Shown here one piece after another: positions 7,743 to 52,238 of a stretch of DNA of 64,000 bases. The translations under genes were made by a program, and so were the position numbers. The notes beneath the pieces were generated by a model. The model had not been told where the DNA came from, made no database searches, and worked only from the letters and a program-made list of their open reading frames with translations. Origin of the DNA: Candidatus Saccharimonadota bacterium (GTDB lineage: Bacteria; Patescibacteriota; Saccharimonadia; Saccharimonadales; Saccharimonadaceae); assembly GCA_017557865.1 (NCBI GenBank), contig JAFYXW010000006.1, positions 21,553-85,552 on the forward strand. Direction: 5' to 3'. Positions within the stretch are counted from its first letter, which is position 1. Every line of letters starts with the position of its first letter.

Positions 7743-8409
7743 GGGTTGGCGAAAAATTATTAGTTGGACTTTTTGGTCTATTTTGGCGATACTATTTTTG
7801 GTTTATTTTATTAGAGTAGCGACCTTTGAAGACGCTTATTACAGAGAAAAAGAAGGTAGCGAACGAGCAGAAACGGCAGCAATTGAAGAGGAGGTGGAAC
7901 TAATCGAAGAAAAGCCGTCCGAGACCGAAATTGCAGAATACATAGTAGCGGCAGACATGCCGCGATATTTAAGTGTCGCGAAACTCGGCGTTTCTAAGGC
8001 GCGAATTATTCCGGTTGGGATTAATATTAGTGGGGAACTGGGCACGCCGAATAATATTTTTGATACAGGGTGGTATGATGCGTCAGCTAAGCCTGGAACG
8101 GGCGGAACAATGCTTCTTGACGGGCATAATGGTGGGCCACATGTACACGGCATCTTTAAGGATCTGCCAACGCTTACAGCTGGAGATATTATAGAGATTG
8201 AGCGTGGAGATGGCACAGTCTTTAAATATTCAGTAGTGAAGAACGTAACGGTAGCTCTTTCTGATTCTGATGCCGAAATGACGACAGCAATGCATTCTCC
8301 AGAACCAGGGAAAGAATCTATCACGATAATCTCTTGTACGGGCGAATGGTCACAGACGCAAAGAACCTATCTTTCTAGGCAGTTTACATACGCAGTTATA
8401 GTAGAGTAA
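7711..8409 (+). CDS. Sortase-family transpeptidase-like protein (divergent)
   Basis: N-terminal TM and an acidic linker, then a His (LLDGHNG) … Cys (ITIISCTGEW) … Arg (SRQF) arrangement. It overlaps the secY 3' end by 32 nt; an alternative start is ATG 7726. Confidence 0.6.
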   Translation: MTISIMSLKIKGWRKIISWTFWSILAILFLVYFIRVATFEDAYYREKEGSERAETAAIEEEVELIEEKPSETEIAEYIVAADMPRYLSVAKLGVSKARIIPVGINISGELGTPNNIFDTGWYDASAKPGTGGTMLLDGHNGGPHVHGIFKDLPTLTAGDIIEIERGDGTVFKYSVVKNVTVALSDSDAEMTTAMHSPEPGKESITIISCTGEWSQTQRTYLSRQFTYAVIVE

Positions 8410-8423
8410 AATATAAGGTTTCT

Positions 8424-8498
8424 GGGGCCGCGTCCGGTCGGCCCATCGCCATGGGCGGCCGGCGCTAATTCTCGCGCTGCCGCGCTCCGAAATGCCCC
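8424..8498. repeat. GC-rich structured repeat, copy A (75 nt) nested in a copy-specific inverted repeat (8410-8514)
   Basis: GGGGCCGCGTCC…GGCGCTAATTCTCGCGCTGCCGCGCTCCGAAATGCCCC. The flanks AATATAAGGTTTCTGGGG / CCCCAAAAATCTTATATT are complementary at 16 of 18 positions. It starts 1 nt after the stop codon of the sortase-like gene. Confidence 0.8.
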
Positions 8499-8518
8499 AA
8501 AAATCTTATATTTTCCTC

Positions 8519-8547
8519 TTTACAAATATACATATATGTGCTACACT
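8519..8547 (+). promoter_or_regulatory. Candidate sigma-70-type promoter of the infA-…-rpsI operon
   Basis: -35 TTTACA (8519-8524), a 17-nt spacer ending in TGc, -10 TACACT (8542-8547); 13 nt to the infA ATG. Confidence 0.55.
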
Positions 8548-8560
8548 AGAAGGGTAATTT

Positions 8561-8785
8561 ATGGCTAGTCAAAAGGAAGTGATTAAGCTCACAGGCACTG
8601 TTGTTGAGGCATTGCCGAATACCCAGTTTCGGGTTGAACTCGAGAATGGTCATATTATTGTTGCCCATATGAGTGGACGCATGCGAAAAAACTATATTCG
8701 CCTCGTCCCGGGTGACAGAGTCGAAGTTGAGTTAACCCCTTACGATCTTACAAAGGGCAGAATCAGCTTTAGGCTCAAAGATTAA
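8561..8785 (+). CDS. infA: Translation initiation factor IF-1
   Basis: A 74-aa S1-like OB fold: …[43 protein letters not shown]…. Confidence 0.95.
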
Positions 8786-8930
8786 TATTAAACATTTTAG
8801 GTTTAATGTTATGAATTTTAACCACTGTGAATAACAGAGGTAAAATTTGTAAAATCTTAATGTTATGATTTCGAAACACAACATTAAGATAGTTAAACTT
8901 AAAAATAATAGGAAAGGATATTTTGACACT

Positions 8931-9047
8931 ATGAAAGTACGTGCAAGTGTTAAAAAAATCTCCCCAGATGACATCATCGTTCGCCGCAAAGGTGTTCTTC
9001 GTGTCATCAACAAGAAAAAACCTAAAAATAAGCAAAGGCAGGGTTAA
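8931..9047 (+). CDS. rpmJ: 50S ribosomal protein L36
   Basis: The 38-aa [38 protein letters not shown], taken from the internal ATG of the 8865..9047 ORF. It is a non-zinc (Cys-less) form. Confidence 0.9.
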
Positions 9048-9052
9048 AATAT

Positions 9053-9439
9053 ATGGCTAGAATAGCTAGCGTTGTGATTCCTTCCGATAAGCAAGTGTGG
9101 ATTGCACTTACTTACGTTTATGGTATTGGAAGAACAACATCTAAAGCCATCCTTGCGGAGGCTAAAATCGAGCCTACCACTCGGGTGAAAGATCTCACCG
9201 AGGCTGACGAACAAAAAATTAACGACATTATTTCCGCGAAATATCATGTTGAAGGTGATTTGCGTCGACTCGTGAGCAATAATATTAAACGCTTAAAGGA
9301 TATCAATTCTTATAAAGGTATCCGCCACAAGGCTAAATTACCAGTCAACGGCCAACGTACTCGTACGAATGCACGTACACGTAAGGGTAAGGCGATCGCG
9401 GTCGGTGGTGCACAACCAAAAGCAGCAAGTAAAACTTAG
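9053..9439 (+). CDS. rpsM: 30S ribosomal protein S13
   Basis: [10 protein letters not shown]…[12 protein letters not shown]…; conserved position in the alpha operon. Confidence 0.95.
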
Positions 9440-16121: not shown

Positions 16122-17087
16122 TTACTCCGTAACCGGCATCTTGATAGTGCCGAGATTTTCGTAGTTTTCGAGTTTGATATCCTTTAGCTCGCGGGAGCTG
16201 TCGAAATCATAGAAATCCTTGACTTCTGGGTTGAGCCAGAGGGTTGGTGCTTTTGGCAGCGTGCCGTTTTTGACGGCTTCGTCGTATTTTTTGATTTGTT
16301 CTTTGATGCCATCAACTTGGTTCTCGTAAATGTGGGCATCATTGGTGATAAATGTCATTTGGCCCGGTTTGGCGCCAACAGAATGGGCGATTAAGTTGCA
16401 AAGTACAGCGTACTGGACGACGTTGAATGGTAGGCCTAGTGGGACGTCGGAAGAACGAGAGGTAACGAGGACGTTTAGGTGTCCGTCGATAAGGTTCCAC
16501 TGGGAATTCCAAACACAGGAAGGTAGCGCTGCGGTTTCTAGCCACTCATTTTGCCAGAGTGACAAGACCATGCGACGGTTGCCAGGGTTAGATTTTAGGG
16601 TTTCGATGAGATTATGAATAAGACCATATCGATTTACAATCCAGCCATAGGCAGTACCAATGGTGTGTGCAAAATCGGTTTTTGGTTCGTCTGGGTGTTT
16701 TTCGGCGAAGATTTTGTTGATGTTCCTGCCTTGATATTCGCCAGATTCGGAAATTTCCCATTCGTTCCAAATTTTGACATTTCTATCTTGGAGCCAGCGG
16801 ACGTCATTAGAAGCTTGTTGATAAATCCAGAGGATTTCAAGAACAGCAGTCTTAAAAGCAACTTTTTTGGAAACTAAAATAGGGAATTCTTCGGACAAAT
16901 CAAATTGTAAAACTTGATGTGGCAAACGGATGGTGCGAGCCTCGGACGAGCCTTGGGCGGTATGATCTGGTATAGCTGAAGCTACTTCCTTGCTGCGATT
17001 GTCTGATTTTTTGTAGTTGGTGATTTTTTCACCATGTTCTAGAATGCGCCGACAAAGGTCTATATATTGGTCGTCGAATTTGCTCAT
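16122..17087 (-). CDS. thyA: Thymidylate synthase (ThyA type)
   Basis: …RRMVLSLWQNEW…LPSCVWNSQW…SRSSDVPLGLPFNV…; adjacent to folA and glyA. Confidence 0.9.
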   Translation of the reverse strand: MSKFDDQYIDLCRRILEHGEKITNYKKSDNRSKEVASAIPDHTAQGSSEARTIRLPHQVLQFDLSEEFPILVSKKVAFKTAVLEILWIYQQASNDVRWLQDRNVKIWNEWEISESGEYQGRNINKIFAEKHPDEPKTDFAHTIGTAYGWIVNRYGLIHNLIETLKSNPGNRRMVLSLWQNEWLETAALPSCVWNSQWNLIDGHLNVLVTSRSSDVPLGLPFNVVQYAVLCNLIAHSVGAKPGQMTFITNDAHIYENQVDGIKEQIKKYDEAVKNGTLPKAPTLWLNPEVKDFYDFDSSRELKDIKLENYENLGTIKMPVTE

Positions 17088-17198
17088 TTTACCTCCGTTT
17101 TCTCTATTATAACACGGTGGTTTAGGGGTGCAAATATTGACTTTTTTGGCATTTTGTGCTATAATTATAAGATAAGGAGTTATTTGGGAGAAAACTCT

Positions 17199-17783
17199 AT
17201 GTTCAAAAGAATTTTGGCAATTTTTTTATTCAGTTCTCTATGGATGATATTACAGCCAGAACTTTTGACGGCTTCTAATCCTATAGTGGTGACCGGTCTT
17301 AATAATGCTGGTATTGTGGAAACTGTAATTCCGGAGCCAGAACCTGAGCCAATAATTGAGCCGGCGCCGGTTTACTATGCTCCAGTAGCGTATGTCCCAC
17401 AGGTAGCAAATTACACCGTGACGGCAAAGACGGCGGCGTTTGTTGCCGAGCCAAGCTACAGCGATATTTACATGACGAGAAAATTGATCTATGCGCACAA
17501 TTCTAGCGGTTTGATGGGGAATTTAGTCAATCGCTATGTGGGTGAGATTTTTACGATTACCGAAGGCGGCATTACGCGTAACTACCGTGTGATGGATATT
17601 CGAATTTATACTTTGACCGATGCTTATACTTTGAGCTTTGCTGGCGTTGGTTATAAAATGCTGGATACTGCCATTTCTGGCGCAAATGGTTACGATGTAG
17701 CACTCATGACTTGTTATGGGGCTTACAACGCATCACTTGGCACCAGTGGCCAAAGATTTTTCGTTTATGCAAATGCTGTGTAA
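17199..17783 (+). CDS. Sortase-like protein (divergent; His/Cys/Arg pattern)
   Basis: Start taken at MFKRILAIF… (SD and TGcTATAAT upstream); the 17067 start would overlap thyA. It has a signal/TM, a Pro/Glu linker, and IYAHNS … ALMTCYG … QRFFVYA. Confidence 0.5.
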   Translation: MFKRILAIFLFSSLWMILQPELLTASNPIVVTGLNNAGIVETVIPEPEPEPIIEPAPVYYAPVAYVPQVANYTVTAKTAAFVAEPSYSDIYMTRKLIYAHNSSGLMGNLVNRYVGEIFTITEGGITRNYRVMDIRIYTLTDAYTLSFAGVGYKMLDTAISGANGYDVALMTCYGAYNASLGTSGQRFFVYANAV

Positions 17784-17805: not shown

Positions 17806-19152
17806 ATGATGCAGAACCTAAAAAGATTCTTCTCTCTTTTGATGTTGTTTTTGCTTCTGAGTTTAGTATCGATTGCTGCATATTTTGCACAAGAGAATTT
17901 AATGGCAAAAAAGCCGAATTATGACATTCCTTCAAAGATAGAAATTTTTTTAAATGGCACAACGTTCGAAGAAATAAATAGTGGCTCTAAAACGACAGAG
18001 TATCCCAATAATACTCTGGAGATAACAACCAATATAGGCACGGATGTATACCAAAATGTTACTATTCGTGGGCGTGGTAACTCTTCGTGGACTCGTGATA
18101 AAAAGCCGTATCAAATCAATTTTAGTTCGCCGATTTCGCTTCTAGGCATGCCTAAAGAAAAGAAATGGGTGCTCCTAGCTGGAGATTTTGATAATTCCGA
18201 CATGCGGAATGATATTTTGCGATATATGGAAAATATGGTCGGTACGGACTATGCGGTTGATGGCAGGTATGTAGAACTTTATGTAGATAATGAATATGTT
18301 GGTTTGTATTATCTCATGAATAAAGTGGAAATCGAGGGAAATCGTGTAGCTTTGTCTGATCCTTATGGTATATTAGTCGAATTGGAAAACCTTCATTCCA
18401 ATCATGTAGAATGCTATGAATCGATCGAAAGTGATTGTCTGGTAATTTCTGATGCAGTAGACAATGATAACGCCGATGGAAGCATGAATGAATTTATGAC
18501 AAAATTTAATGATTTGCTAACAGCGGCGAAAAAAGGCAATTATAAAAAAGTTGAAGAAGTTGCCGACGTTGAATCGATGGCAAAATACTTTTTGATTGCT
18601 GAATTTTCAGTAAACCCAGACGCGTATGTTTCGAGTATGTTTATGACAATGGATGGGCTGGATGACAAAATTCACTTTGGGCCAAACTGGGATTATGATT
18701 TTGCGTTTGGCAACCTAAGATGGGACTGGCATTATATCGCTGATTTTCACTCGCCGTATGAATCGATGGTACAGAAAAAATCGGCGTTCGGGGAAACATA
18801 TCTTAATCCTGAAACTAATGAATATGAAGTTTACGAAGCCGATCAAAATGTTTCAAAGTTGTTTTATTATTTGATGGATATCCCAGAATTTGAAGATGAG
18901 GTCTGCAGAGTTTATCGTGAAAGAATGTCTGGTCGGGCAGAGGAATTACTTGATTTCGTGCGAAGACAAGCAGCGAATATTCGCGATGCCGCTTTGCGTG
19001 ACGAAGAGCTTTGGCTACGTGGGGGGATTGGAGTGATGGGTTTTGACGATGAAGTCGAATATTTGTTGGATTGGATAGCAAAACGTTACGATTTCTTTGA
19101 ACAGACTTATGGTGTTCGACGTGCTATAAATGTTCCGCAGAACATGTTATAA
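17806..19152 (+). CDS. CotH-family atypical protein kinase-like protein (secreted)
   Basis: N-terminal signal/TM. CotH-like motifs: IRGRGNSSWTRDKKPYQINF, VDNEYVGLYYLMNKVE, NWDYDFAFG. Confidence 0.75.
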   Translation: MMQNLKRFFSLLMLFLLLSLVSIAAYFAQENLMAKKPNYDIPSKIEIFLNGTTFEEINSGSKTTEYPNNTLEITTNIGTDVYQNVTIRGRGNSSWTRDKKPYQINFSSPISLLGMPKEKKWVLLAGDFDNSDMRNDILRYMENMVGTDYAVDGRYVELYVDNEYVGLYYLMNKVEIEGNRVALSDPYGILVELENLHSNHVECYESIESDCLVISDAVDNDNADGSMNEFMTKFNDLLTAAKKGNYKKVEEVADVESMAKYFLIAEFSVNPDAYVSSMFMTMDGLDDKIHFGPNWDYDFAFGNLRWDWHYIADFHSPYESMVQKKSAFGETYLNPETNEYEVYEADQNVSKLFYYLMDIPEFEDEVCRVYRERMSGRAEELLDFVRRQAANIRDAALRDEELWLRGGIGVMGFDDEVEYLLDWIAKRYDFFEQTYGVRRAINVPQNML

Positions 19153-19159
19153 TAAAAGT

Positions 19160-19897
19160 ATGAAGAAAATTGTGATTAGATTCGCAATTTTGGCGGCTCT
19201 CGCCGGGCTTTTGGTGTGGGCGTTTTCTGCAATAAAAAATCGTGAAGTAAATATAAACAAATGGTTTGTAGGGAATTACCAAAAAGGCGTGGATGTGTCT
19301 TCGTATCAAGAGGACGTAGATTTTGATAAATTGAAAGAGCAGCATATTGATTTTGTGTACGTAAAAGCGACTGAAGGTAGTACGCATGTGGACAGCAGTT
19401 TTAGTAAGAAATGGGCCGATACGGCGGTGGCAAGGATGCCGGCGGGGGCATATCATTATTTTTCATACGAAAGTAGTGGCGCCAAGCAGGCGGAAAACTT
19501 TATCAAAACGGTTGGGAGTTTGGACGGACGGTTGATCCCGGCTGTGGACATGGAGCTGACAGTTGAAGAGGTGAATAACCCACCAGAAAAAGATGTCGTA
19601 GTGCGTGGGCTTAAAGCTTTTTTGGCAGTCATTGAAGAAAAATATGGGGTGAAGCCGCTGATTTATGCGCAAAAAGATTATTGGGACAAATACTTGGCGG
19701 AAGATTTCTCTGATTATCCGCGTTGGATTCGAAATGTTTACTATCCAGTTTTTGTGGATGCGGGCGATGATTGGCTAGTGTGGCAGTATTGGGATAAATG
19801 CGTACTAGAAGGCTATAGTGGCGAAGAGTTTATCGACATGAATGCGGTAAATACGGGCGGGCTGGAAAAACTTGAATACAAAAATGGTGGAGCATAG
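19160..19897 (+). CDS. Glycoside hydrolase family 25 lysozyme (muramidase)
   Basis: Start at MKKIVIRF… with a signal peptide. GH25 motif GVDVSSYQEDVDFDKLKEQHIDFVYVKATEGSTHVD. The last 4 codons lie in a tRNA-derived repeat. Confidence 0.85.
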   Translation: MKKIVIRFAILAALAGLLVWAFSAIKNREVNINKWFVGNYQKGVDVSSYQEDVDFDKLKEQHIDFVYVKATEGSTHVDSSFSKKWADTAVARMPAGAYHYFSYESSGAKQAENFIKTVGSLDGRLIPAVDMELTVEEVNNPPEKDVVVRGLKAFLAVIEEKYGVKPLIYAQKDYWDKYLAEDFSDYPRWIRNVYYPVFVDAGDDWLVWQYWDKCVLEGYSGEEFIDMNAVNTGGLEKLEYKNGGA

Positions 19898-21972: not shown

Positions 21973-22627
21973 CGACGTAAAAAATATTGAAAAAATTGCA
22001 GCAAAAACTGGAACGTCGATTTTTGTGATGCCAGACGATAAGGAAGTTGAAATTAAAAATGCCTTGACTTTGGAGCCAAATGGAAAAACGGTAATCTCGA
22101 TTGAACAAGCACGCGATATCATTTCGCGGCTTTCCGTAAAACAAACAAGCGACCAATTTGTAGTTATTCGTCCAGTGGAGGCAATGAGCGAAGAAGCGGC
22201 AAATGCGTTTTTGAAAAATTTAGAAGAACCGGGCGAAAAAGTCCATTTTGTGTTAATTACGAGTAGTCCGTCTTTGGTTTTGCCGACGATTCTAAGCCGC
22301 TCTTCTGTTTATTTTTTGAGAAACCATGAACCAATCGATGGCGACATAAAAGTTGAAGCGAAAATACGCGACTTAGCTAAGCGTTTGATTGTGGCGAAAC
22401 CTGGCGATTGGCCGGCACTAGCCGAAGAAATTACTAAGAAAAAAGAAAATGTACGTGAATATACTTTGACGGTGCTTGCGACGACAATAGAAATGCTTTA
22501 TAAATCTTATTTCAAAACTGGCAAAGAAATTTTTATCAAAAAAATTCCAAAATTTTTGACTGCCTACGAAAATATTGAAAAGAACGGACACATAAAATTG
22601 CATTTAGTAGCGGATTGTGGAAATTAA
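21962..22627 (+). CDS. holB: DNA polymerase III delta'-like subunit (short form)
   Basis: Start taken at MFFDDVKN… (11-nt overlap with the upstream gene). Clamp-loader motifs AANAFLKNLEEPGEKVHFVLIT…PTILSRS. No Walker A N-terminus is seen. Confidence 0.65.
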   Translation: MFFDDVKNIEKIAAKTGTSIFVMPDDKEVEIKNALTLEPNGKTVISIEQARDIISRLSVKQTSDQFVVIRPVEAMSEEAANAFLKNLEEPGEKVHFVLITSSPSLVLPTILSRSSVYFLRNHEPIDGDIKVEAKIRDLAKRLIVAKPGDWPALAEEITKKKENVREYTLTVLATTIEMLYKSYFKTGKEIFIKKIPKFLTAYENIEKNGHIKLHLVADCGN

Positions 22628-22751
22628 ATAAAAAAGTAGTATTTTAATGTGAAATGCTTGAGGTTTTTTTGTTTGTGCATTATAATGGTTATGTAGATAG
22701 TGGAGGTCATAAATAGGGGGTAAGACAATAATAGGGTTTATAGGGAGAATT

Positions 22752-25700
22752 GTGCTAAAGCGAGGTAAGAATTGGGAGCTAAAGGCCCGCTGCAGATTGG
22801 GTTTGCGGCAGGTGTTTTTGTTTTTCATTTCTATTTTCGCTTTCCTAAACATCGCTACTTTTGTTTCGGCCCCAGCAGTTTCTGCTGCAGCCAAACAAAG
22901 CACTCTAAGCCTTACCATGGAGACCGGCAAACTTACTATGACTCTTTCTCCAGAGCTCAATGGTAGATTTGTCAAATCCTCCAATGCTGGTATCAGCGTT
23001 ACCACGGATAACTATTCAGGTTATCGCCTTACCATTACTTCTAACGGTGGGACTTCTCTTTCTTCCAGCAATGGCCGCAATATAGAATCCGTTGATACCG
23101 CCATTTCAGAAACTGTCTTCAGAAACAATGCTAGCTATGTAAACAAGTGGGGCTACAAACCAAGCCAATACGTTAATGATTCAAATGAAGTAGTCACAAG
23201 CAACACCAACTACCTTCCTGCTCCAAGCACCACTGGCAGCCTCATTGATGTAACCTCCGCAGCAAACTCCACTGCCAAAACCTACACTCTAAGTATCGCT
23301 GCCAAAATAGACTTTGATATTCCTCCAGGAACTTATACTCGCAATATTACACTGGCAGCTATTGCCAATGATATTATTTACAATATTTCTTATGATAAAA
23401 ACACTGCAGACACTGTGACTAATATGCCGGTAACCAATCCGCAAATTGTCACCATTGCTGGTGGTACTGCTGCAGCTAGCAGCAAAACTACACTTAGCAA
23501 TGCTACACCAACTCGTACCGGCTACGACTTTATGGGTTGGTGTAGCACTACTACCACAGCCGATGCAGCTGGTACCCAGACTTGCTCTGGCACTACCTAT
23601 GCCGCTGGTGCAGACTATGGCATAGACCAAACTGCTGATGGTACCAACATTACGCTCCGGGCAATTTGGAAAATCCATGATTATACTATTACTATCAACT
23701 ATGGGCCTGGTATTTCTAGTCTTTCTGGCACCGGTTGGGAAGTTTATGGCGACTCTATCAGCAAGACATTCCACATTGGTGACACTGTCGATCTTGCTAC
23801 TATTGCCTCAACTTATAACACTGGTTATAGTGGCGCTAAATATGCCAAAACAGATACTTATGGCACCCTTAGTGGCTCCACTTATACTGTTGGAGCAGGG
23901 GATGGCTCCATTACCTTTAGCGCTAGCACCCTAGACACTCCGGTTTGCGAGATGACAGGCGGATCTGTAAAAGTATACAATCGTACTAGCACCATGATTA
24001 CAGCTACGTCTAATAGCGATAATTACGACATAAACTCGGTGGATATTACTTATTCGTTTGGCTATGCTAGTAGCAAAAATGGTACTCTTGGTAATTTTGG
24101 CCCAGCCCAGACAGGTAATACCACTACTTTTCAAAAGGATGATTGGCGTGGCATTAGATACTACGGTGTTACTGTTGTAGTGACGGACGTGACTGATAAT
24201 ACGATTACCGCTACCTGTACTTCTGGCACGGGGACTGGCCAGGGTACAACTGTAGCTAATCGCGCTACCGTAGCATTTGTAAACTCGCGCGTAGATTTAG
24301 ATGCTAATGGTGGCACCCTTGCTGGCGGGAACAACCCGTTCTATGTTTCTTATCAATCTGGTGCCAAATACACCACTAGGGTCGGCACTACTGCCGCCAC
24401 TGTTCCAACAGTTACCCCGCCGGATGGCTATGCTTTTGATGGTTGGTATACGGCTAGTGATGGCGGGGATAAGGTGTTGAGTGCCAATGGTACAGTCGTT
24501 GGCGCGGTTACTAACTGGACTAATGCTGATGGGCAGTGGATAAAGACTGCTACTACGGATACAGCTGGTACTGCTGGCAATGTGCTTTATGCTCACTACA
24601 TAGCCAACACCTACGATGTTACTCTGGATCAATGTTCTGCTACTACAAGCGGTTCGACTTCTACTACGGCTACTTATGGCGCTACCACCCTGGCTAGTAT
24701 TAATAATCCACAAAGGGCTTACACGATTTCATTTGCTAATGATTCTAGCGCTGCCGCCTCTTCTATGGACCCGCTCACCGCTACCTATACTTTTGGTGGT
24801 TGGGTCAGCACTTCCTGTGGCAGTAGCACTTTAGTAGCATCGTACGATGCTACTCCAGTCTTACAAGCTGATGTGACCAACTTTACGGATGGTAGTGGCC
24901 ATTGGGCTAGAGCTGACAGCGCTACTCTTTATGCAAAGTGGGCTAGTGCATCTGTAACACTACCAACTTTGAGTAAAGCTGGGTATACTTGTAATTGGAC
25001 GGACGGCACTAATGATTATACTCCTGGCGCGTCTATTGTTCCGGGTCAGGATTTGGACTTGTATGCTTCTTGTACCGCTAATCCTTACACGGTGACTATT
25101 ACAACTGGTAATGGTGTTACCACCCTTACTGCTTCTGGGTGGGATGGTAGCGGTACATCCACTATTTCTAAAACCTTCTACACGGATGACGTTATAGATC
25201 TTACCACGATTACTCCTACTAGGGCGACTGGTTATGTAGGAACAGCTTACGAAAAGACAGACACTTATGGGACGCTAAGTGGTTCTAGCTATATTGTTGG
25301 CCCAGGCGCCGGTGCGATTACACTTAATGTTAGCGGCATTGCTGCACCTACTTGTGAGATTACCGGCGGTACCACAAAGGTATACAACTATCAGAACACC
25401 ACTCTAACCGCTACGGATACTTCAGTAAATTATGATAGTAATATGACCATTACGTACAACTTTGGCTATGCCGATACAGATTCTGATGCACTTGACAATT
25501 TCAGTGAGGCTCAAGCCGAAAACACCTTTACGGTGACAAATAGTGCCTATCGTGGCACTAGATATTACGGTGTGACTATTGACGTCACAGACGGAACCTT
25601 TAGCAGTTCTTGCACCTCTGCTACTGGAACGGGTGCTGGTGGCCGTACAGAGATGACGCTCATCAATTCCAGGATCGACTTTGACGCCAACGGTGGCACG

Positions 25701-28700
25701 CTGAATGGCGCAGAAACATTATATGTGAGCTATAACATGGGCGGGTCTTATAGAAGCTCATACGGGGGTCGAACGTGGAATGGAGGCATATCATATAATT
25801 GCTATAATTCGGGTGGCACTACTTATTGCAGTTATTTCTATCCAGGAACTTTCGCATACACTACTGCTACGGGCACAGCTCCCGCTCACCTTCCATCCGC
25901 TACCGCTCCAGATATTGGCTACGAATTAGACGGTTGGTATACGGCAGCAACGGGTGGAAGTAGAATAACCGGAAAAACAAATGGATCTTGGTCTACAAGT
26001 TCTAATACGAGATACTCTAGCTACACCGGTCAGTTTTTATACGCTCCAAGCGCTGTCTGTGGCACAAGTTCCAACAGATGTAATTCAGACGTTGCAGGAT
26101 GGAAGTATGCTTACTATAATCTTGATAGTGTTAGTGGCGGTTATTATTCACAGTACCGTTATTGGCGAAAGACTGGCACCGATTTAAGTGACAATGTTGC
26201 TGAAAATAGACTTTACGCGCACTATAAAGCAAAGCAATATACTATCACTTTAGATAAAAATGGTGCGACTAATAATCCGACGTCTAATGGCTACGTTAAT
26301 TATGACGCTACCCAGTTTAGATCTGCGCTTTCTACATTGCCAGTCCGCTCATACACTATCTCTGGTTGGACTACTCCAGCTGAAAACAAAGCTAACGGAG
26401 CAGTTGTAAATGGTGGAACCACGCCAACCGATGCCACTGCTTCATATGCATTTGACGGTTGGTATCAAGAGGCAGAAGCTACGCACAAGATTGCGTCAAG
26501 TGCATCCACTCCAGTGCTAGAGGCGAATACCGACTATACAGATGCAAACGGTGTCTGGAAAAACGATGGCAACGTTACGCTCTATGCTGGTTGGACCGGC
26601 CAAAGCGTAACACTCCCAACCATCACGAAGTATGGCAGCGTTTGTGGTTGGACCACCGTAGCTACTGATGCGACCACTATAGAGTATGCTTCTGGCGCTG
26701 CTATTACCCCTACTACCGATATGACGCTTTATGGTGTGTGTATTGGGAATTATCTGCAGGACATCACTCCAACGGAGCTTGCTGGGCTCTTACCGAACGT
26801 TGGCGATACTGTAGTGTTGCTAGACAAACGTGATGAGACCGGCTATATGGTTGGAAAGTTAGCGGATGGCAACTACTGGTTCCTCGAAAACCTCGCTCTA
26901 GACCTCTTAGATTCTGACGTCCAGACGAAGATGAATAGTAGCAATACCTTGACCAACGCTTCTCAGGCTACAATCAATAAACTTATCAACGGCGGCGGTA
27001 CCACTAGTGATAAATACCCAACAGCTGGGATTGAAGAGTGGTCGTCTGGAGTGGGCAGTTATTCTCGGGCCTTGGTTGATGATTTGAGCGAGAAAGACGC
27101 TGTTCCGTCCGACAGTATGAGCACGGCCGGAGGCTGGAAGAACGGCGGCTATTACAACTATTGTGCAGCTTCGGCGGGTAGTTACTGTTATGGTAATGGC
27201 ACGACCGAGGGGACGTCGGCAGGTGATGACACCGAAGATATCTGTCCTTCTGGCTGGCGTATGCCTACAGGCGGCACCGGCGGCGAATACGATAGTCTCT
27301 ACTCGGCTTACGGCAATAGCTATTCAAATCTTCGCTCAGCCTTACGTATTCCACTCTCTGGCTACTACTGGGGCATTCACACGCCTCCGTATACAGACGT
27401 AGGTTCAACTGTCCACTTCTGGGCTTCCACGCGCTATAGTAATTCTGAAATGAACCTACTATATTTGAGCGATTCACCAACAGAAGTACAATCAAATGGC
27501 TATTATACTCGCAACCATGGCTTTAATATCCGCTGTGTGGCTAAGCGTTATTTGCAAGATGTGACTAATAATGATTTGGTTACGATGTTGCCGAGTGTTG
27601 GTAGCACAACCGTTCTTACTGACAAACGCGATGAAACCGATTATACCGTAGGCAGACTCAAAGACGGCAACTACTGGTTGCTAGAAAACCTCTCACTAGA
27701 TCTCACTGACTCTAGCGTCCAAGCCAAGATGAATAGCAGTGATACCTTAACTAATGCTTCACAATCTTCTATCGACAAGATGATTAATGGTGGCGGTACT
27801 GCTAGCGATAAATACGCTATTACTGGTGTTAACACTCAGACTTCCGGTGGTAGTTATTCCGAGGCTAGGTTAAGTCTGGAAGATATAGATACTGTCCCGT
27901 CTGATACTCTCAGTACGAGCGGTGGTTGGAAGGTTGGCGGCTACTATAATTATTGTGCTACTTCAGCTGGTAGTTACTGCTATGGTGATGGCGCGAGTGA
28001 GGGAACGCCAGTAGGCAATGCCACAGAAGACATCTGTCCTTCCGGCTGGCGTCTAGCTACAGACGATAGTGGCGGTGAATATCGAGTCCTATATAATCTC
28101 TACAATAATTATACTGATTTCCGTGCTGCTCTACATCTTCCTTTGTCTGGCTATTATTATGACGCATCAAGCCATGACCAAGGAACGGATGGTTACTTCT
28201 GGTCATCTACATATAAAGACTCTGTCTATATGTATGACCTTCGTGCAGGAACATCTCTTATCACTCCGCAATACGATGGGAATCGTCGTGGTGAGGGCTC
28301 GATTCGCTGCTTTAAAGCCGGTTCACTACAATCAATCAGTAGGGCCGAAATGGATGAGTTGATGCCAGATGCTGGTACTGCAACTATTCTCTTTGACTCG
28401 CGTGATGGCAACAAGTATACTGTGGGCAAGCTAGAAGATGATAAGTTTTGGATGCTGGACAATTTGGCGCTAGATTTAACCAACTCTAGTGTACAGAGCA
28501 ATATGAACAATTCATTCAATACGCTCACTAATGCTTCACAAACATCTATTAATAAGATGATCAATGGTGGTGGTACCACTAGTGACCAGTACCCTATTGC
28601 CGGAGTGGGTACCTTTACCTTTGAGACTCCTAATGGGCAATATCAACCTAGTTGGTATAACTTCTCACGTGCGTATGTTTATATGAATGATAAAGACGTT

Positions 28701-31700
28701 GTCCCGACCAATGCACCGGCAGACGGGCTCGGCAGCAACAAGGCAGGCGGCTATTATAATTATTGCGCGACATCAGCGGGCAGCTATTGTTATGGGGATG
28801 GCATAAGCGAGGGAACATCAATAGGCAATGCCACAGAAGATATTTGTCCATCTGGCTGGCGTTTAGGTACAGGTGGTACCGATGGCGAATATGGCGCATT
28901 GGCTGCAGCCTACAATAATGACGTTTCTGATTTCATGACGGCATTCTCCGCTCCTATTGCTGGCGGGGTTTCTAACAATATATATTATCGTAATAGCTAT
29001 GTGTGGTTCTGGACCAGCACAAGGTACGATAATGAATGGATGTATTCTCTAGATATTGATGCTAGAGACACCCCAGCCGTAATATATCCAGCTGGTTACA
29101 TCGATGATGACACTGGTAGACAATTACGTCCTTCTGGACAAACAGTAAGATGCGTATCGTCGCATTTGCAGGGCGAAACCTATGATGTCACATTGGACGG
29201 CAATGGAGCTACCAACACGCCGACTGCATCTACTACTGTCGTTCATAGCGCCACTGCTCTGTCTTCTATTTCTACACTTCCGGTTCGAGCCTACAATCTT
29301 AGTTTCGCTCTTGACTCTACTGCCACTGGTGCAACCGTAACCTATCAAGATTCCGGAAATTGTACTTCCGCCGCCACCTGCGCTTCCGTGTATAACTTCA
29401 CCGGCTGGTATCAAGAAGCTGCTGCTACAAATAAAATTGCCTCAAGCTCCCCGACTCCGGCTCTAGAAGCCAATACTGCATATACCAATGCAAGTGGTAA
29501 GTGGACCCATAGTGGTGGTGCTACCCTCTATGCCGGTTGGGATGGCACCAATGCGAGCGTTACACTACCAACTATCGTTAAGAATGGTTACAGTTGTGTT
29601 TGGAAAGATCAAAATGACAATACTTACGCTTCAGGAGCATCAATTGTGTCTACTGCAGACCGCACCCTTACTGGCTATTGTACCGGTAATACCTACACTG
29701 CCACCTTCTACTACCAAAGCGATTCTACTCTTCGCGGAGAAACTATTTCTACCGCCACAGCACAATGTACCGTCTCCAACTCTGCAGGGAACTGTACAGC
29801 TACCATCCCAACTGCGGTTAGAAATTCTGTTGGTACCTACAATAACGCCTACGCCGGTGTAGCCGCAACAGTAAACACTATGGCTGCCGCAAACAGTGGC
29901 ACTAATGTCACCCTCACCGGCAATGCTAACTTCTATGCGATATATAGAACTTCGGTCCTGCTTCATAAACCAGTCTCTTCTTCTGCTACCACAGACCAAA
30001 CTCTTTATAGAAACCAATACTTTACCTCTAATTCCGCGCTTTCAACCAAACTTTCTACATCTACTACCGGTACCGCCAACTGGACCTATGCTTCAAGCTT
30101 CACAGATGATAGCGGTGGGTATGGCTTGTTCAGGCTTACTTCTACTATGGGTACCTCATCAAGTGTAGGTACGCAGATTAAAACTTGTGGGTCAGCTGGG
30201 ACTGGCTACTGTAGTTCCGTAGCGGCTATAGCTGCCAGCGATGTTACAGAAGCATACGTAGTCGAGAACAAGGTTATTACCGCTACTTTCTATTACAACA
30301 ATAATACTAATGTTAGTGCTTGTACTGCTGCAGCTGTAACCTCTACCACCAATACTGGCAATAGATACGCGTATATTACCGCCGCTAGCGTAAGCACTAT
30401 CGGCAACCGTCAGATTAGTATCCCAGACGTAGTAACGAATAGTAAAGGGACTTGTGGCATGCCATACCTAAATGTAGGCACATCTACTGGCAACATGACC
30501 GCCGTTACGCCGAATACTTCACAGGGCAATAAAAACTACTATGCTCGTTATTCTCAGGAACAACAGGTGTTTTATTACCATATCGAGTCAAGCGGTGGTG
30601 GTGGCGCGGTCGCGGCAAACTACACTTATAAGTCCATATACCGCAATCAGAGAGTTAGCGGTACCTCCGCAAGTAGCGTTTCCACTATTGTATTGGCGGA
30701 CTCTACTACTGGTACCTCTAACTACACTACCGAGGCTGGTCCGGGTAGCTCCGAATGGACTGGGCTCGCGGCTTCTAGTACCACGACTCCAGCTTATACT
30801 TCTGTTGCTGCAGCTGCCACTGCGAACAAAATTCATACTACACCATTCTATACTATTTATACGATTAGTGTTACTTTCGCGAAGGGAGCGAATACTAGCG
30901 CTATCGGCGGAACCTCTGGTTCTTGTAAACTAAACGCCACGAATGGTAATTCTGGCACCTTCAGTTGTAGTATCAAAACGCCGACGATCACTCCGAATGC
31001 TGGCTATACGGCCTGTGGGTGGAACAGTACTAATGGTGCTACTTCCGGCACGAACGCAGGTAGTAATATAAGTGTTAGTATTAATGGAGCAAAATATTAT
31101 GGTAACTCAAAGGATATTACGGCGCCTTCTGTGCCAGGCGTAAGTACACAACCGTATGCACTAGAAATAACTGGCAATGTTTGGTGGAACTTTAGAGTAA
31201 AAATGCAAGCAACAGACACTAGCGGTTCAAATATTAAATTTACGATTACTAATACTACCGGGACTAGCACGAATACCTGTGGCGATAATGAGGTCTGTGA
31301 AGTATTCGTAAGGTCCACAAAGAGATTTGACGCTGCCGGCGGCGGTAATCCTGCGACCGCCTATACGTATAATGCCGTTTCCGAAGATGCGGCCGGCAAT
31401 AAAACAACCAATACTGACGGATTTGCTCCGCAAGGAACTTCTGGTTGGTCTGCGCAAAACTTCTATGTGCAACAACTATACGGTGGCATTAGAGCAGCAT
31501 GGGGCTCTCCGTACCAAACCAATCCTTACGAACAAAGTGGTGTTATCCAACCATTAACCATTGGTAACACTAAAGCTGCCACGGTAGTTAAAGATATATT
31601 TAGAAGTATAGAGGCGCAGGAGTTCTACGCTGGAAAAAGTGCTCTTTATAAATGTCAGCAGATGTATCATGCTATCTTTGGTAGAGAAATAGATTCTGCT

Positions 31701-31880
31701 GGTTCTACTACCTGCTCAGCTGCCATTAATAATAATGGTGGGAAGATGGGGGCTGTGGCCGCAAGTCTTGCTAACTCTAATGAGGCACAAAGTCTATTCG
31801 CTCTTCTAGGGTTTAATACCGGAAATGCTGAAGGCTCTACGGACGATGCGACCGAACATTGGGCAATTCTCCCATGGTAG
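22752..31880 (+). CDS. Giant (3,042 aa) secreted/cell-surface repeat protein: Listeria-Bacteroides (Flg_new-type) repeats, three FISUMP/lectin-like modules and a DUF4214-like C-terminus
   Basis: Uninterrupted 9.1-kb ORF with a GTG start after GGGAGA. Signal/TM (…FLFFISIFAFLNIATFVSAPAVSAAA). Recurrent …GY.F.GW… repeat signatures. 3x DKRDE..Y.VGKL.DG.YW.LENL…GGYYNYCA.SAGSYCYG…EDICPSGWR…IRC. C-terminal …MYHAIFGREIDSAG… (DUF4214-like). Confidence 0.9.
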   Translation: MLKRGKNWELKARCRLGLRQVFLFFISIFAFLNIATFVSAPAVSAAAKQSTLSLTMETGKLTMTLSPELNGRFVKSSNAGISVTTDNYSGYRLTITSNGGTSLSSSNGRNIESVDTAISETVFRNNASYVNKWGYKPSQYVNDSNEVVTSNTNYLPAPSTTGSLIDVTSAANSTAKTYTLSIAAKIDFDIPPGTYTRNITLAAIANDIIYNISYDKNTADTVTNMPVTNPQIVTIAGGTAAASSKTTLSNATPTRTGYDFMGWCSTTTTADAAGTQTCSGTTYAAGADYGIDQTADGTNITLRAIWKIHDYTITINYGPGISSLSGTGWEVYGDSISKTFHIGDTVDLATIASTYNTGYSGAKYAKTDTYGTLSGSTYTVGAGDGSITFSASTLDTPVCEMTGGSVKVYNRTSTMITATSNSDNYDINSVDITYSFGYASSKNGTLGNFGPAQTGNTTTFQKDDWRGIRYYGVTVVVTDVTDNTITATCTSGTGTGQGTTVANRATVAFVNSRVDLDANGGTLAGGNNPFYVSYQSGAKYTTRVGTTAATVPTVTPPDGYAFDGWYTASDGGDKVLSANGTVVGAVTNWTNADGQWIKTATTDTAGTAGNVLYAHYIANTYDVTLDQCSATTSGSTSTTATYGATTLASINNPQRAYTISFANDSSAAASSMDPLTATYTFGGWVSTSCGSSTLVASYDATPVLQADVTNFTDGSGHWARADSATLYAKWASASVTLPTLSKAGYTCNWTDGTNDYTPGASIVPGQDLDLYASCTANPYTVTITTGNGVTTLTASGWDGSGTSTISKTFYTDDVIDLTTITPTRATGYVGTAYEKTDTYGTLSGSSYIVGPGAGAITLNVSGIAAPTCEITGGTTKVYNYQNTTLTATDTSVNYDSNMTITYNFGYADTDSDALDNFSEAQAENTFTVTNSAYRGTRYYGVTIDVTDGTFSSSCTSATGTGAGGRTEMTLINSRIDFDANGGTLNGAETLYVSYNMGGSYRSSYGGRTWNGGISYNCYNSGGTTYCSYFYPGTFAYTTATGTAPAHLPSATAPDIGYELDGWYTAATGGSRITGKTNGSWSTSSNTRYSSYTGQFLYAPSAVCGTSSNRCNSDVAGWKYAYYNLDSVSGGYYSQYRYWRKTGTDLSDNVAENRLYAHYKAKQYTITLDKNGATNNPTSNGYVNYDATQFRSALSTLPVRSYTISGWTTPAENKANGAVVNGGTTPTDATASYAFDGWYQEAEATHKIASSASTPVLEANTDYTDANGVWKNDGNVTLYAGWTGQSVTLPTITKYGSVCGWTTVATDATTIEYASGAAITPTTDMTLYGVCIGNYLQDITPTELAGLLPNVGDTVVLLDKRDETGYMVGKLADGNYWFLENLALDLLDSDVQTKMNSSNTLTNASQATINKLINGGGTTSDKYPTAGIEEWSSGVGSYSRALVDDLSEKDAVPSDSMSTAGGWKNGGYYNYCAASAGSYCYGNGTTEGTSAGDDTEDICPSGWRMPTGGTGGEYDSLYSAYGNSYSNLRSALRIPLSGYYWGIHTPPYTDVGSTVHFWASTRYSNSEMNLLYLSDSPTEVQSNGYYTRNHGFNIRCVAKRYLQDVTNNDLVTMLPSVGSTTVLTDKRDETDYTVGRLKDGNYWLLENLSLDLTDSSVQAKMNSSDTLTNASQSSIDKMINGGGTASDKYAITGVNTQTSGGSYSEARLSLEDIDTVPSDTLSTSGGWKVGGYYNYCATSAGSYCYGDGASEGTPVGNATEDICPSGWRLATDDSGGEYRVLYNLYNNYTDFRAALHLPLSGYYYDASSHDQGTDGYFWSSTYKDSVYMYDLRAGTSLITPQYDGNRRGEGSIRCFKAGSLQSISRAEMDELMPDAGTATILFDSRDGNKYTVGKLEDDKFWMLDNLALDLTNSSVQSNMNNSFNTLTNASQTSINKMINGGGTTSDQYPIAGVGTFTFETPNGQYQPSWYNFSRAYVYMNDKDVVPTNAPADGLGSNKAGGYYNYCATSAGSYCYGDGISEGTSIGNATEDICPSGWRLGTGGTDGEYGALAAAYNNDVSDFMTAFSAPIAGGVSNNIYYRNSYVWFWTSTRYDNEWMYSLDIDARDTPAVIYPAGYIDDDTGRQLRPSGQTVRCVSSHLQGETYDVTLDGNGATNTPTASTTVVHSATALSSISTLPVRAYNLSFALDSTATGATVTYQDSGNCTSAATCASVYNFTGWYQEAAATNKIASSSPTPALEANTAYTNASGKWTHSGGATLYAGWDGTNASVTLPTIVKNGYSCVWKDQNDNTYASGASIVSTADRTLTGYCTGNTYTATFYYQSDSTLRGETISTATAQCTVSNSAGNCTATIPTAVRNSVGTYNNAYAGVAATVNTMAAANSGTNVTLTGNANFYAIYRTSVLLHKPVSSSATTDQTLYRNQYFTSNSALSTKLSTSTTGTANWTYASSFTDDSGGYGLFRLTSTMGTSSSVGTQIKTCGSAGTGYCSSVAAIAASDVTEAYVVENKVITATFYYNNNTNVSACTAAAVTSTTNTGNRYAYITAASVSTIGNRQISIPDVVTNSKGTCGMPYLNVGTSTGNMTAVTPNTSQGNKNYYARYSQEQQVFYYHIESSGGGGAVAANYTYKSIYRNQRVSGTSASSVSTIVLADSTTGTSNYTTEAGPGSSEWTGLAASSTTTPAYTSVAAAATANKIHTTPFYTIYTISVTFAKGANTSAIGGTSGSCKLNATNGNSGTFSCSIKTPTITPNAGYTACGWNSTNGATSGTNAGSNISVSINGAKYYGNSKDITAPSVPGVSTQPYALEITGNVWWNFRVKMQATDTSGSNIKFTITNTTGTSTNTCGDNEVCEVFVRSTKRFDAAGGGNPATAYTYNAVSEDAAGNKTTNTDGFAPQGTSGWSAQNFYVQQLYGGIRAAWGSPYQTNPYEQSGVIQPLTIGNTKAATVVKDIFRSIEAQEFYAGKSALYKCQQMYHAIFGREIDSAGSTTCSAAINNNGGKMGAVAASLANSNEAQSLFALLGFNTGNAEGSTDDATEHWAILPW

Positions 31881-31915
31881 TTTGCTAAATGTTTTTTGGG
31901 CTTTAATAAGTTTTG

Positions 31916-31933
31916 TGCTAAAATTAGGTTATG
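31916..31933 (+). promoter_or_regulatory. Extended -10 box abutting the TPR gene start
   Basis: TGcTAAAAT (31916-31924), 6 nt, ATG at 31931. Confidence 0.5.
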
Positions 31934-32678: not shown

Positions 32679-32763
32679 GCTGGAATCGTCTAGTGGCAAT
32701 GACAAGAGACTGTAAATCTCTCGCCTTCGGGCTTCGTAGGTTCGAGTCCTACTTCCAGCACCA
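32679..32763 (+). tRNA. tRNA-Tyr (anticodon GTA), class II with a long variable arm
   Basis: 85 nt: acceptor GCTGGAA/TTCCAGC, anticodon stem AGAGA/TCTCT with loop CTGTAAA, long variable arm, T-arm GTAGG-TTCGAGT-CCTAC, CCA. Confidence 0.88.
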
Positions 32764-32769
32764 TTTAGT

Positions 32770-32845
32770 GCCGCTATAGCTCAGTTGGTAGAGCGCATCC
32801 ATGGTAAGGATGAGGTCACCGGTTCAAACCCGGTTGGCGGCTCCA
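32770..32845 (+). tRNA. tRNA-Thr (anticodon GGT)
   Basis: 76 nt: acceptor GCCGCTA/TGGCGGC, anticodon loop ATGGTAA, T-arm ACCGG-TTCAAAC-CCGGT, CCA, then a T-run. Confidence 0.88.
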
Positions 32846-49725: not shown

Positions 49726-49751
49726 AAATAGCCCTTCAGGGGCTATTTTTT
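49724..49751. terminator. Bidirectional terminator between convergent rpmG and GH57
   Basis: AAAAATAGCCC-TTCAG-GGGCTATTTTTT; the GH57 stop codon lies inside the hairpin. Confidence 0.7.
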
Positions 49752-50942
49752 GTTGCCGAGTCTATATTCTATATCGCGAAGGACGTTTTCGAAGTACATG
49801 AAGGCTTCGTATGGCGAGGCATAGGCAGAGAAATAAGCATGAACGTCGCCATCATTCCAATATTTGGTGCACATAGCATATGGATGGTCCGAAGTAGTAA
49901 GATGGCGCCAATCGGAAATTAATGTGTTATCGCCGGTGGCGAGAATATCGTCACGTAGTGCAAATAGATCTTTCATGGCTGAAGTTTGGAGTGAATTAGA
50001 GAGCCAGGCAGAGAGATCGCGTTCGGTATCGGCCCAGGTGACAGTGGACGGCATAGAGATCTCGTCGGCTGGTTCAGAGAGGTCGCAGGCTTCGGACACG
50101 GTGACAAATTTGTTTTCATATTGGCTGAGCCAAGACGGAATTAGGCCATCCATAAAATCGAAAATACCCGTATCTTTCCATTGGTGCTCACCAAAGGTCT
50201 CAAAATCCATAAATAAGTTAATAAGATTGCCGCGGAGACAGTCCATATCAAGCCAATTGATGTATTTTGGCACAGTTAGAGGCCAAGCGTTCCAGCTGCG
50301 GTTTGAGAAACGGAAAGCGATATCATCTGATAAACGATAGTTTTTGAGTAAAAGTTTAAGATTTTTGCAACCAGCTGGACGATAAACATAATTTGGGCTG
50401 CGCCAACCCAAAACTTTGTCCCAGCCTTCGGCGAGAATGCCTTTATATCCTTTTTCTTCGGCCCAGTTTGCAAGGCTGTCGTTATAAGCAAGCTCGGTAT
50501 TACGAAAGACGCGTGGACGAACGCCGAATAATTCATAAATTAAGTCGCTATGTTTCTTTACTTGGTCGTTAAATTCGTCGATATTGTAGAAAAAGGCTAA
50601 TGAGTGATAAAAAGTTTCGCCAACGATTTCGACTTGGCCAGTATCAACCATACGGTGAATTTGCTCAATTAAGGCGCTATCCCACTTTTTAGCTTGTTCT
50701 AACCAAGTGCCGGTAATAGAAAAGGAAACTTTAAATCCTGGGTAATTCTTGATGTTCTTTTCAAGCAAATCGAGCATTGGATGGTAGCTCTTTTCGGCAA
50801 CTTTTTTGAAAATGCGTTCGTTGGATTGGCGAGAATTCCAGTCGCTATTGTAATAATTGGAATTATTTGAGACGTCAAAAATGGAGTATTCGCGGTAGCG
50901 AAGTGGCTGGTGGATGTGTAGATATAAACATATCGCCCGCAA
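49743..50942 (-). CDS. Glycoside hydrolase family 57 protein
   Basis: GH57-type N-terminus MRAICLYLHIHQPLR…; …FMDFETFGEH…. Confidence 0.8.
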   Translation of the reverse strand: MRAICLYLHIHQPLRYREYSIFDVSNNSNYYNSDWNSRQSNERIFKKVAEKSYHPMLDLLEKNIKNYPGFKVSFSITGTWLEQAKKWDSALIEQIHRMVDTGQVEIVGETFYHSLAFFYNIDEFNDQVKKHSDLIYELFGVRPRVFRNTELAYNDSLANWAEEKGYKGILAEGWDKVLGWRSPNYVYRPAGCKNLKLLLKNYRLSDDIAFRFSNRSWNAWPLTVPKYINWLDMDCLRGNLINLFMDFETFGEHQWKDTGIFDFMDGLIPSWLSQYENKFVTVSEACDLSEPADEISMPSTVTWADTERDLSAWLSNSLQTSAMKDLFALRDDILATGDNTLISDWRHLTTSDHPYAMCTKYWNDGDVHAYFSAYASPYEAFMYFENVLRDIEYRLGNKK

Positions 50943-50944
50943 AA

Positions 50945-52168: not shown

Positions 52169-52238
52169 CTATACAATTTTAGCACATTTTAAAGCATAAG
52201 TGTAGTTTTTGTGGTAAAATAAATGAAGGACATTACGT

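Follow-up and report, generated by a model that had tools for sequence, protein, structure and literature searches.

Why would a Nanosyncoccus-like member of the Saccharibacteria from the rumen spend 9 kb of a streamlined genome on a single gene, and what might the product of that gene do? The question is raised by a 64-kb window of DNA (the whole stretch analysed here, 64,000 nucleotides of contig JAFYXW010000006.1 of assembly GCA_017557865.1), in which one open reading frame (ORF) on the forward strand runs from position 22752 to 31880, stop codon included. It starts with GTG, comprises 3,042 sense codons without an internal stop and takes up 14.3% of the window, in agreement with an earlier sequence-only reading of this DNA, which had described one uninterrupted 3,042-residue frame covering 14%. 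Our preferred reading, which we hold at about an even call, is that this giant gene encodes a Sec-exported, multivalent ligand-binding surface protein of the adhesin type, belonging to a mosaic family of giant proteins specific to Saccharibacteria. Within that reading the protein looks like a variable accessory binding factor, not core attachment machinery.

The description of the product as a secreted, modular surface protein is supported by its signal peptide and by its module map; all features of the gene given below lie on the forward strand. A Sec-type signal peptide was located at residues 1-45 (22752..22886) by a hydropathy scan, which agrees with the N-terminal signal proposed earlier, and in homologues the AXA sites lie directly before the conserved domain. 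It consists of a K/R-rich start, a hydrophobic core and then AVSA-AA, and is of the signal-peptidase-I type in appearance; no lipobox was found in the giant protein, the sole cysteine of the signal peptide (C14) preceding the hydrophobic core. The segment at about residues 20-45 is the only hydrophobic one detected by the scan, the maximum hydropathy beyond residues 1-60 being 1.23. As had been stated before, neither an LPXTG-like motif nor a C-terminal transmembrane segment was found by hydropathy and motif scans; the protein ends in ...HWAILPW and lacks the C-terminal LPXTG-like motif, hydrophobic segment and positive tail of a sortase substrate. The compositional bias noted earlier was also recovered: T (14.5%), S (10.7%), G (10.2%), A (10.1%), N (7.2%) and Y (6.8%) together make up about 60% of the residues, and the charged residues K, R, D and E 13.4%. 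The start codon deserves comment. The public gene call for this protein (P0001, 3,020 residues) begins at a TTG (22818), 22 codons after the GTG at 22752. The longer form is preferred because the TTG start drops the K/R-rich beginning of the signal peptide, which is kept in homologues; a ribosome-binding site, GGGAG (22743..22747), can be read 4 nt before the GTG.

What points to ligand binding is a set of three tandem FISUMP modules. These had been recognised in the sequence-only reading and were confirmed above the cut-offs of both Fib_succ_major (PF09603; 59.9 bits versus 33.9) and TIGR02145 (69.1 bits versus 41.65), and by self-comparison of the protein. Module 1 (residues 1334-1597, 26751..27542) was delimited by hidden Markov models (HMMs) and self-comparison, and its AlphaFold2 (AF2) model has a mean confidence score (pLDDT) of 80.5; module 2 (residues 1598-1858, 27543..28325) and module 3 (residues 1859-2137, 28326..29162) were delimited by self-comparison. 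The three copies share 54-64% identity in the first approximately 200 alignment columns, and 24-33% identity with insertions and deletions in the last approximately 90. Four cysteines, at module positions 139, 147, 166 and 263, are invariant in all three copies, two of them being invariant in 23 modules of the family; such conservation hints at extracellular disulfides. The model also matches phage proteins annotated as FISUMP/DUF1566 (E 8e-4). Fib_succ_major (FISUMP) and DUF1566 have been assigned to the CLec2 class of variable ligand-binding domains with a C-type-lectin fold, which are targeted by diversity-generating retroelements (DGRs) (PMC5758913; PMC8143477); in this class the DGR variable region is the C-terminal region (PMC5758913). 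No reverse transcriptase domain was found in the ORFs scanned within the 64-kb window, and no template-like repeat of the FISUMP 3' regions was found within the 64 kb. In this window-level search, the FISUMP divergence thus appears to be divergence between paralogous modules, not DGR mutagenesis. Taken together, the modules suggest one scaffold presenting three different putative binding surfaces, and sugar is probably what the protein binds.

The FISUMP modules are carried within a long stalk, mapped by self-comparison (self-BLAST), segment-wise Pfam scans and hhalign. The Listeria-Bacteroides-type repeats claimed earlier are present: Flg_new (PF09479) scores 47.1 bits against a gathering cut-off of 27 over the whole protein, and at least eight Flg_new stretches (1+2+4+1) were counted in segment-wise scans. 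The first Flg_new (InlB B-repeat) unit (residues 216-305, 23397..23666) stays together with the N-terminal domain across the family. It is followed by module A1 (residues 306-514, 23667..24293), three Flg_new-type units (residues 515-783, 24294..25100; Pfam scans and self-BLAST), module A2 (residues 784-974, 25101..25673), and Flg_new-type units with a Tyr/Ser/Gly-rich insertion (residues 975-1333, 25674..26750; segment scan and self-BLAST), in which the segment scan places four Flg_new stretches. A1 and A2 are duplicates with 49-52% identity by self-BLAST, and neither has a Pfam match. Beyond the FISUMP modules lie a pair of Flg_new units (residues 2138-2315, 29163..29696), which is the third copy of a pair found also at residues 608-783 and 1150-1333; repeated modules without a Pfam match that recur in many other large proteins (residues 2316-2700, 29697..30851); a divergent Flg_new-like unit with a GYTACGW motif (residues 2701-2795, 30852..31136), which hhalign aligned with the Flg_new units at a probability of 58% and E 1e-4; and an unassigned beta-rich segment (residues 2796-2900, 31137..31451) that is conserved with P0078 and P0133 and may be Ig-like, judged by motifs only. 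The A1/A2-type modules (residues 306-514) and residues 2316-2700 were also considered as degenerate Flg_new units, and this was rejected (hhalign probability <1%). Sequence searches of the PDB with profiles of the N-terminal domain, the FISUMP modules, the stalk and the C-terminal domain gave nothing significant, the only PDB sequence neighbours of the stalk being InlB B-repeat entries.

How could a protein of this kind be kept on the cell? The best candidate is the N-terminal domain (N-dom, residues 46-215, 22887..23396), a beta-sandwich of about 170 residues that was delimited by alignment of homologues and by an AF2 model, and that starts exactly at the predicted mature N-terminus. The first approximately 300 residues (signal peptide, N-dom and first Flg_new unit) are common to 36 of 47 homologues at 35-54% identity; the remainder of those 36 proteins differs, many carrying Y_phosphatase3 and Big_2 domains. 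In an alignment of 34 N-dom sequences (alignment A1), the mean column identity is 56% and 16 positions are invariant, and the motifs N(K/R)WGYKPSxY and NYLPAPS stand out. The giant protein has both motifs, in a domain of about 170 residues placed directly behind a signal peptide, and thus falls within the family so defined. No match to N-dom was found in Pfam, NCBIfam or PDB sequences. In a profile search the domain was N-terminal in every match; it is also N-terminal in proteins of 595-1,853 residues from related genomes, and it occurs as stand-alone proteins of about 200 residues, one of which has a weak SCPU match. Because N-dom is the sole constant part ahead of variable passengers, it is the best retention candidate for proteins that lack LPXTG, and we infer that it holds these family members on the cell. 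The AF2 model is confident (pLDDT 91.6) and shows a closed, all-beta monomeric sandwich, whose nearest PDB folds are the pilins Caf1, Csu, CFA/I and Fim and the TasA fibre (E 4e-3 to 0.1, template-modelling score (TM) <=0.52).

Two further arrangements of N-dom were observed in related genomes. In locus L082, adjacent genes at 8001-8621 and 8708-9301 encode proteins of about 200 residues consisting of a signal peptide and an N-dom-like domain only, a layout resembling tandem pilin genes; the two ORFs downstream of them (309 and 280 residues) have no Pfam match. In addition, P0020-P0048 constitute a large paralogous group of Saccharibacteria proteins of about 2,000 residues, with an N-dom and Flg_new leader, a C-terminal Y_phosphatase3 (tyrosine-phosphatase-like) domain and Big_2 repeats; judged by these domains, each would be a surface-displayed or secreted phosphatase.

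The C-terminal helical domain (residues 2901-3042, 31452..31877; alignment A5), with conserved cysteines at residues 2968 and 2988, had been called DUF4214-like. The likeness is reproducible, and the match stays below the family cut-off (PF13946, 17.3 versus 23.2 bits, E 0.005) and covers profile positions 25-72 only. Matches of a similar kind, likewise below the cut-off, were obtained with two relatives of the domain, P0099 (18.2 bits) and P0133 (20.9 bits), which suggests a remote DUF4214 similarity, not family membership. The C-terminal profile also gave a weak match to a phycobilisome linker (E 0.053). With the last 263 residues as query, a word-index search for homologues returned nothing, and an exhaustive HMMER search three or four relatives. 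Over 1.84 billion representatives, the exhaustive HMMER search yielded only three clear relatives of the last approximately 150 residues (P0078, P0099 and P0133), which share two conserved cysteines and the motif W.AQ.FY..QLYGGIRA.WG; most of the 177 proteins found at E<=1e-3 match at residues 2316-2790.

Is the giant gene part of the conserved equipment of these bacteria? The alignment of both junctions with relatives indicates that it is not. The gene lies in a single-gene cassette of about 9.3 kb (22620..31917, forward strand), inserted between holB, which encodes the delta' subunit of DNA polymerase III, and a TPR protein gene. The insert consists of a promoter-like site, a 5' leader, the giant ORF and a 37-nt 3' tail; its content is thus the giant gene, the promoter-like site and short tails only, and no terminator was found within its 9.3 kb. 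It is flanked by a 5-bp direct repeat, TTGTG, whose left copy (22615..22619) lies within the last codons of holB and whose right copy (31913..31917) is followed by the ancestral 3' end and stop codon of holB (TTTGTGCTAA); the ancestral spacer is also kept at the right junction, before the TPR start codon at 31931. Since the right junction keeps the ancestral holB end, stop codon and spacer, together with the TTGTG flanks, the event is read as an insertion in the lineage of the window, not as a loss elsewhere. The C-terminus of holB has been rewritten by the insert (22610-22627), ending ...HLVADCGN* versus ...HLVADLC* in relatives, and the former stop codon of holB is still present, unused, at 31918-31920. 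The promoter-like site, TTGAGG-17-TATAAT (22658..22686, forward strand), matches the consensus at 10 of 12 positions, and shuffled sequence gives about as many such sites.

The origin of the cassette was considered in two further ways. When terminal inverted repeats were sought on the insert, the score obtained was lower than the random mean, and a recognisable insertion sequence or transposon was rejected for want of such repeats. A foreign origin by composition was likewise rejected: GC content at third codon positions (GC3) is 0.400 versus 0.391 +/- 0.048, relative synonymous codon usage (RSCU) correlates at r 0.79, and both look native, the raised GC stemming from second codon positions (GC2) and hence from the amino-acid bias.

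The same junction was compared in 109 related loci (75 from species-representative genomes and 34 from metagenomes). The distance from holB to the TPR gene is <=306 nt in 104 of the 109; among the 75 species-representative loci, all carrying both genes, 73 have a distance of <=100 nt, with a median of 6 nt, and the gap is <=120 nt in 30 of the 34 metagenome loci. In the closest available relatives, whose RluA is 90-93% identical, the giant gene is absent from this site. In five other loci the junction is filled by smaller FISUMP genes on the same strand, encoding 0.8-1.1 thousand residues. They form two groups, one of 806-824 residues with 61-65% mutual identity (L033, L099 and L119) and one of 1,065-1,080 residues with 70% identity (L113 and L116); the groups are colinear with each other at 26-28% identity, and their similarity to the giant protein is at the FISUMP level only. 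In L057 a family member adjoins holB on the opposite strand, and in L002 a FISUMP/Flg_new protein of 1,011 residues is encoded one gene beyond the junction. These comparisons indicate that the holB-TPR junction is apparently a recurrent slot for surface-protein genes, and that the giant gene is apparently an accessory, lineage-specific insertion that is dispensable at the genus level, not conserved core machinery. The ends of contigs L004, L051, L060, L072, L088, L089 and L122 coincide with the holB 3' end or lie only a few bases from it; such breaks would be expected if strains differ in the content of the junction. The 1,011-residue ORF of L002 (5580-8615) has an internal sortase-type sorting signal about 200 residues from its start (VPNTGAG, a hydrophobic stretch and KKYKK), followed in the same frame by Flg_new units and two FISUMP modules; it is either a two-gene fusion or a protein of unusual topology.

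The sequence-only reading had called for a check of how orthologues vary, and the answer is clear-cut: no full-length orthologue was found among 5.8 billion protein clusters, in which single alignments extend over no more than about a third of the query, and nearly all related species lack the gene at the syntenic site. P0003, the best partial homologue, was rejected as a positional orthologue, not being syntenic, and the top database matches appear to be paralogues or mosaics. Database relatives of the giant protein already bear the name "InlB B-repeat-containing protein". No contig of the same species was found in either collection searched.

Housekeeping genes flank the giant gene: CotH, GH25, a class-I (Trp/Tyr-type) tRNA synthetase, an RluA-like pseudouridine synthase and holB on the upstream side, and the TPR protein, tRNAs, a DUF308 protein and DinB on the downstream side. 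Their relatives are found in metagenome-assembled genomes (MAGs) of Candidatus Nanosyncoccus and Saccharibacteria from ruminant guts, which bears out the earlier placement in the candidate phyla radiation (CPR). The CotH-family kinase gene and the GH25 muramidase gene, which overlap each other (17806-19897) immediately before the housekeeping block, are a combination not usual in a reduced genome; their products could act on a host cell wall. Between the TPR gene and the DUF308 ORF lie tRNA-Tyr and tRNA-Thr (32679-32845). Because tRNA-Thr (32770-32845) overlaps the mechanically called start of the DUF308 ORF (32801), the true start is placed further downstream; in L002 the same tRNA interval contains a 5-kb insertion with another FISUMP gene. 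Of the three sortase-like genes claimed for the window, two are Pfam-confirmed (7711-8409 and 54829-55338). The third, a 238-residue ORF at 17067-17783 that begins with a hydrophobic segment and carries the motif ...ALMTCYG... in its C-terminal part, has only faint sortase similarity (E about 1) and no Pfam match; its product may be a very divergent sortase-like protein. Farther downstream are an envelope/polymer cluster (57201-61559) with PGA_cap (capsule synthesis), a Cthe_2159 carbohydrate-binding protein, DUF4956 and a VTC-domain protein, and, nearby (49743-57271), GH97, GH57/GT4 and a polysaccharide deacetylase with a surface Ig-like domain.

How might the parts of the giant protein work together? 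After export and cleavage of the signal peptide, N-dom would keep the protein on the cell. Because it is the sole part shared among otherwise unrelated architectures, N-dom probably binds a constant component of the cell's own envelope, or else assembles through beta-strand docking as fibre subunits do. The stalk of Flg_new units and other modules would project the three FISUMP heads outward, and these, each differing from the others in specificity, would bind surface ligands, glycans or others, that are most likely those of a bacterial host cell; modules gained, lost and shuffled at the slot would then tune the range of partners or niches. The ligand is most likely a glycan of the bacterial host, in view of how cultivated Saccharibacteria live and of the finding that another Saccharibacterium, Southlakia epibionticum, requires lectin-like envelope proteins for its epibiotic growth (PMC10633639). 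A role of the giant protein in host attachment is plausible. In a bolder and, as a whole, unlikely version, N-dom would represent an undescribed surface-display system specific to Saccharibacteria, in which a beta-sandwich plug docks interchangeable giant or small passengers on the envelope, or into a fibre of stand-alone N-dom proteins by strand complementation, and the holB-TPR slot swaps FISUMP passengers to change host or niche specificity.

Several observations weigh against the reading of the protein as a host-directed surface adhesin. The giant gene is absent from about 95% of related species, which shows that an epibiotic life as such does not depend on it, and the earlier argument that 9 kb in a streamlined genome implies an important role is weakened by its being an accessory insertion. 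The variation has been shown between species, the closest flank being only 76-82% identical in DNA. In a Foldseek comparison with the PDB, the FISUMP model had no significant neighbour (best E 0.35), and the C-type lectin CEL-IV matched it weakly (E 0.64, probability 0.06); because of this, the lectin fold is assigned to the modules from the literature and from family membership. The fold matches of N-dom are weak, too, and envelope binding by it is a proposal; the protein could be released instead of retained.

The same architecture could serve another ligand. In the rumen or gut the protein could tether the cell to feed particles, plant fibre, biofilm matrix or animal mucus in place of a bacterial host, and so be a niche adhesin or substrate binder. 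This is a serious rival, if rather unlikely: the FISUMP module takes its definition from Fibrobacter succinogenes, which degrades cellulose in the rumen and whose surface proteins have been implicated in attachment to it, ruminant gut samples are the source of the related genomes, most related species do without the gene, and GH97, GH57 and the Cthe_2159 carbohydrate-binding protein are encoded in the same window. However, no recognised plant-polysaccharide carbohydrate-binding module was found in the giant protein by Pfam scans, and cultivated Saccharibacteria live on bacterial hosts, where lectin-like envelope proteins are essential (PMC10633639). The extreme Thr/Ser/Asn/Gly bias, the low charge, the variation of the locus between lineages and the fibre-subunit-like fold neighbours of N-dom would also suit a fibrillar layer, S-layer-like or Thr/Ser-rich with heavy glycosylation, that protects against phages, host defences or immune factors and diversifies as an antigen or phage receptor, not in binding specificity. 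This we consider improbable, as one would look for a coat protein in every species and in conserved form, whereas the giant gene is unique to one assembly, and the presence of three FISUMP modules speaks for ligand binding.

Less probable still is a released exoprotein or effector, such as a carrier of a toxin or enzyme that acts on the host cell. It would account for the lack of a detectable covalent or membrane anchor, and paralogous family members do carry enzymatic domains such as Y_phosphatase3 behind the N-terminal module, yet no enzymatic or toxin domain was found in the giant protein by Pfam and NCBIfam scans. Least probable of all, and very much so, is an artefact, whether through chimeric assembly, through the collapse of repeats or because the gene is dead. 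Only one public contig carries the giant protein, several related contigs end at the holB 3' end, and metagenome assemblies often break at the junction; nevertheless, the gene has 3,042 sense codons without a stop, codon usage is native, both junctions are clean with the ancestral holB end kept, and the promoter-like site and ribosome-binding site are intact. Its internal DNA repeats are only 64-77% identical, so that collapse in assembly is unlikely. A Sec-exported, multivalent adhesin-type protein is accordingly the reading that we retain at the even strength stated at the outset.

What distinguishes the giant protein from systems already known? InlB of Listeria monocytogenes is a surface protein held non-covalently, without LPXTG, and the B-repeat (Flg_new, PF09479) module is present in both proteins. 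Unlike InlB, the giant protein has neither a leucine-rich repeat (LRR) domain nor GW anchoring modules; it uses the B-repeat about ten times as stalk units, and its retention candidate is N-terminal and unrelated to InlB. For the binding part, the known counterparts are the FISUMP/DUF1566 proteins, namely the paralogous lipoproteins of F. succinogenes, Legionella LdtA and the phage CLec2 targets of DGRs: the FISUMP HMM cut-offs are passed and the module cysteines conserved. The C-terminal sub-region, which is the site of the DGR variable region in CLec2 targets (PMC5758913), is also the most divergent among the three copies here. A lipoprotein signal is common among FISUMP proteins, whereas the signal peptide of the giant protein looks like a signal-peptidase-I substrate, and, in contrast to DGR targets, neither reverse transcriptase nor template repeat accompanies the giant gene in its window.

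The donor-strand fibre subunits (Caf1, Csu, CFA/I and Fim pilins) and Bacillus TasA are linked to N-dom by the weak fold matches given above. As in TasA, the domain begins exactly at the mature N-terminus behind a signal peptide, and N-dom has stand-alone versions of about 200 residues, two of them in tandem. However, neither a chaperone/usher nor a SipW-type peptidase was seen next to the giant gene, and the AF2 model of N-dom is a complete, self-contained sandwich; polymerisation of N-dom would be pure conjecture. Among Saccharibacteria, SEML1_0890, SEML1_0891 and SEML1_0315 of S. epibionticum are likewise envelope proteins with glycan-binding domains, proposed as adhesins for host glycans (PMC10633639); they differ in having VCBS, FN3 and dockerin domains, and their genes are essential in transposon sequencing (Tn-seq), whereas the giant gene is absent from almost all related species. 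Finally, Giant1-5 of Apilactobacillus kunkeei and the giants of predatory Omnitrophota are likewise repeat-rich, secreted proteins of several thousand residues that take up a sizeable share of a small genome. They have no sequence relationship to the giant protein and a different domain set, and they are encoded in a conserved gene array, in contrast to the one accessory gene in a variable slot described here.

What does the locus mean for the biology of these bacteria? The giant protein belongs to the known class of giant modular bacterial adhesins; new here are the undescribed N-dom family, the cassette slot between holB and the TPR gene, and the pattern of scaffold plus variable region in the tandem FISUMP modules. 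How ultrasmall epibiotic Patescibacteria recognise and hold their hosts is little understood beyond type IV pili, and the locus offers parts that can be tested: three FISUMP heads that are paralogous and diverge in their putative binding regions, an N-dom present throughout the family that may explain how proteins without LPXTG are retained on the cell, and a slot that is empty, small or giant across Nanosyncoccus-like lineages. If its occupancy and module content do not track host or niche, the giant protein would be one more variable adhesin; if they do, the slot would be both a marker and a handle for studies of host range.

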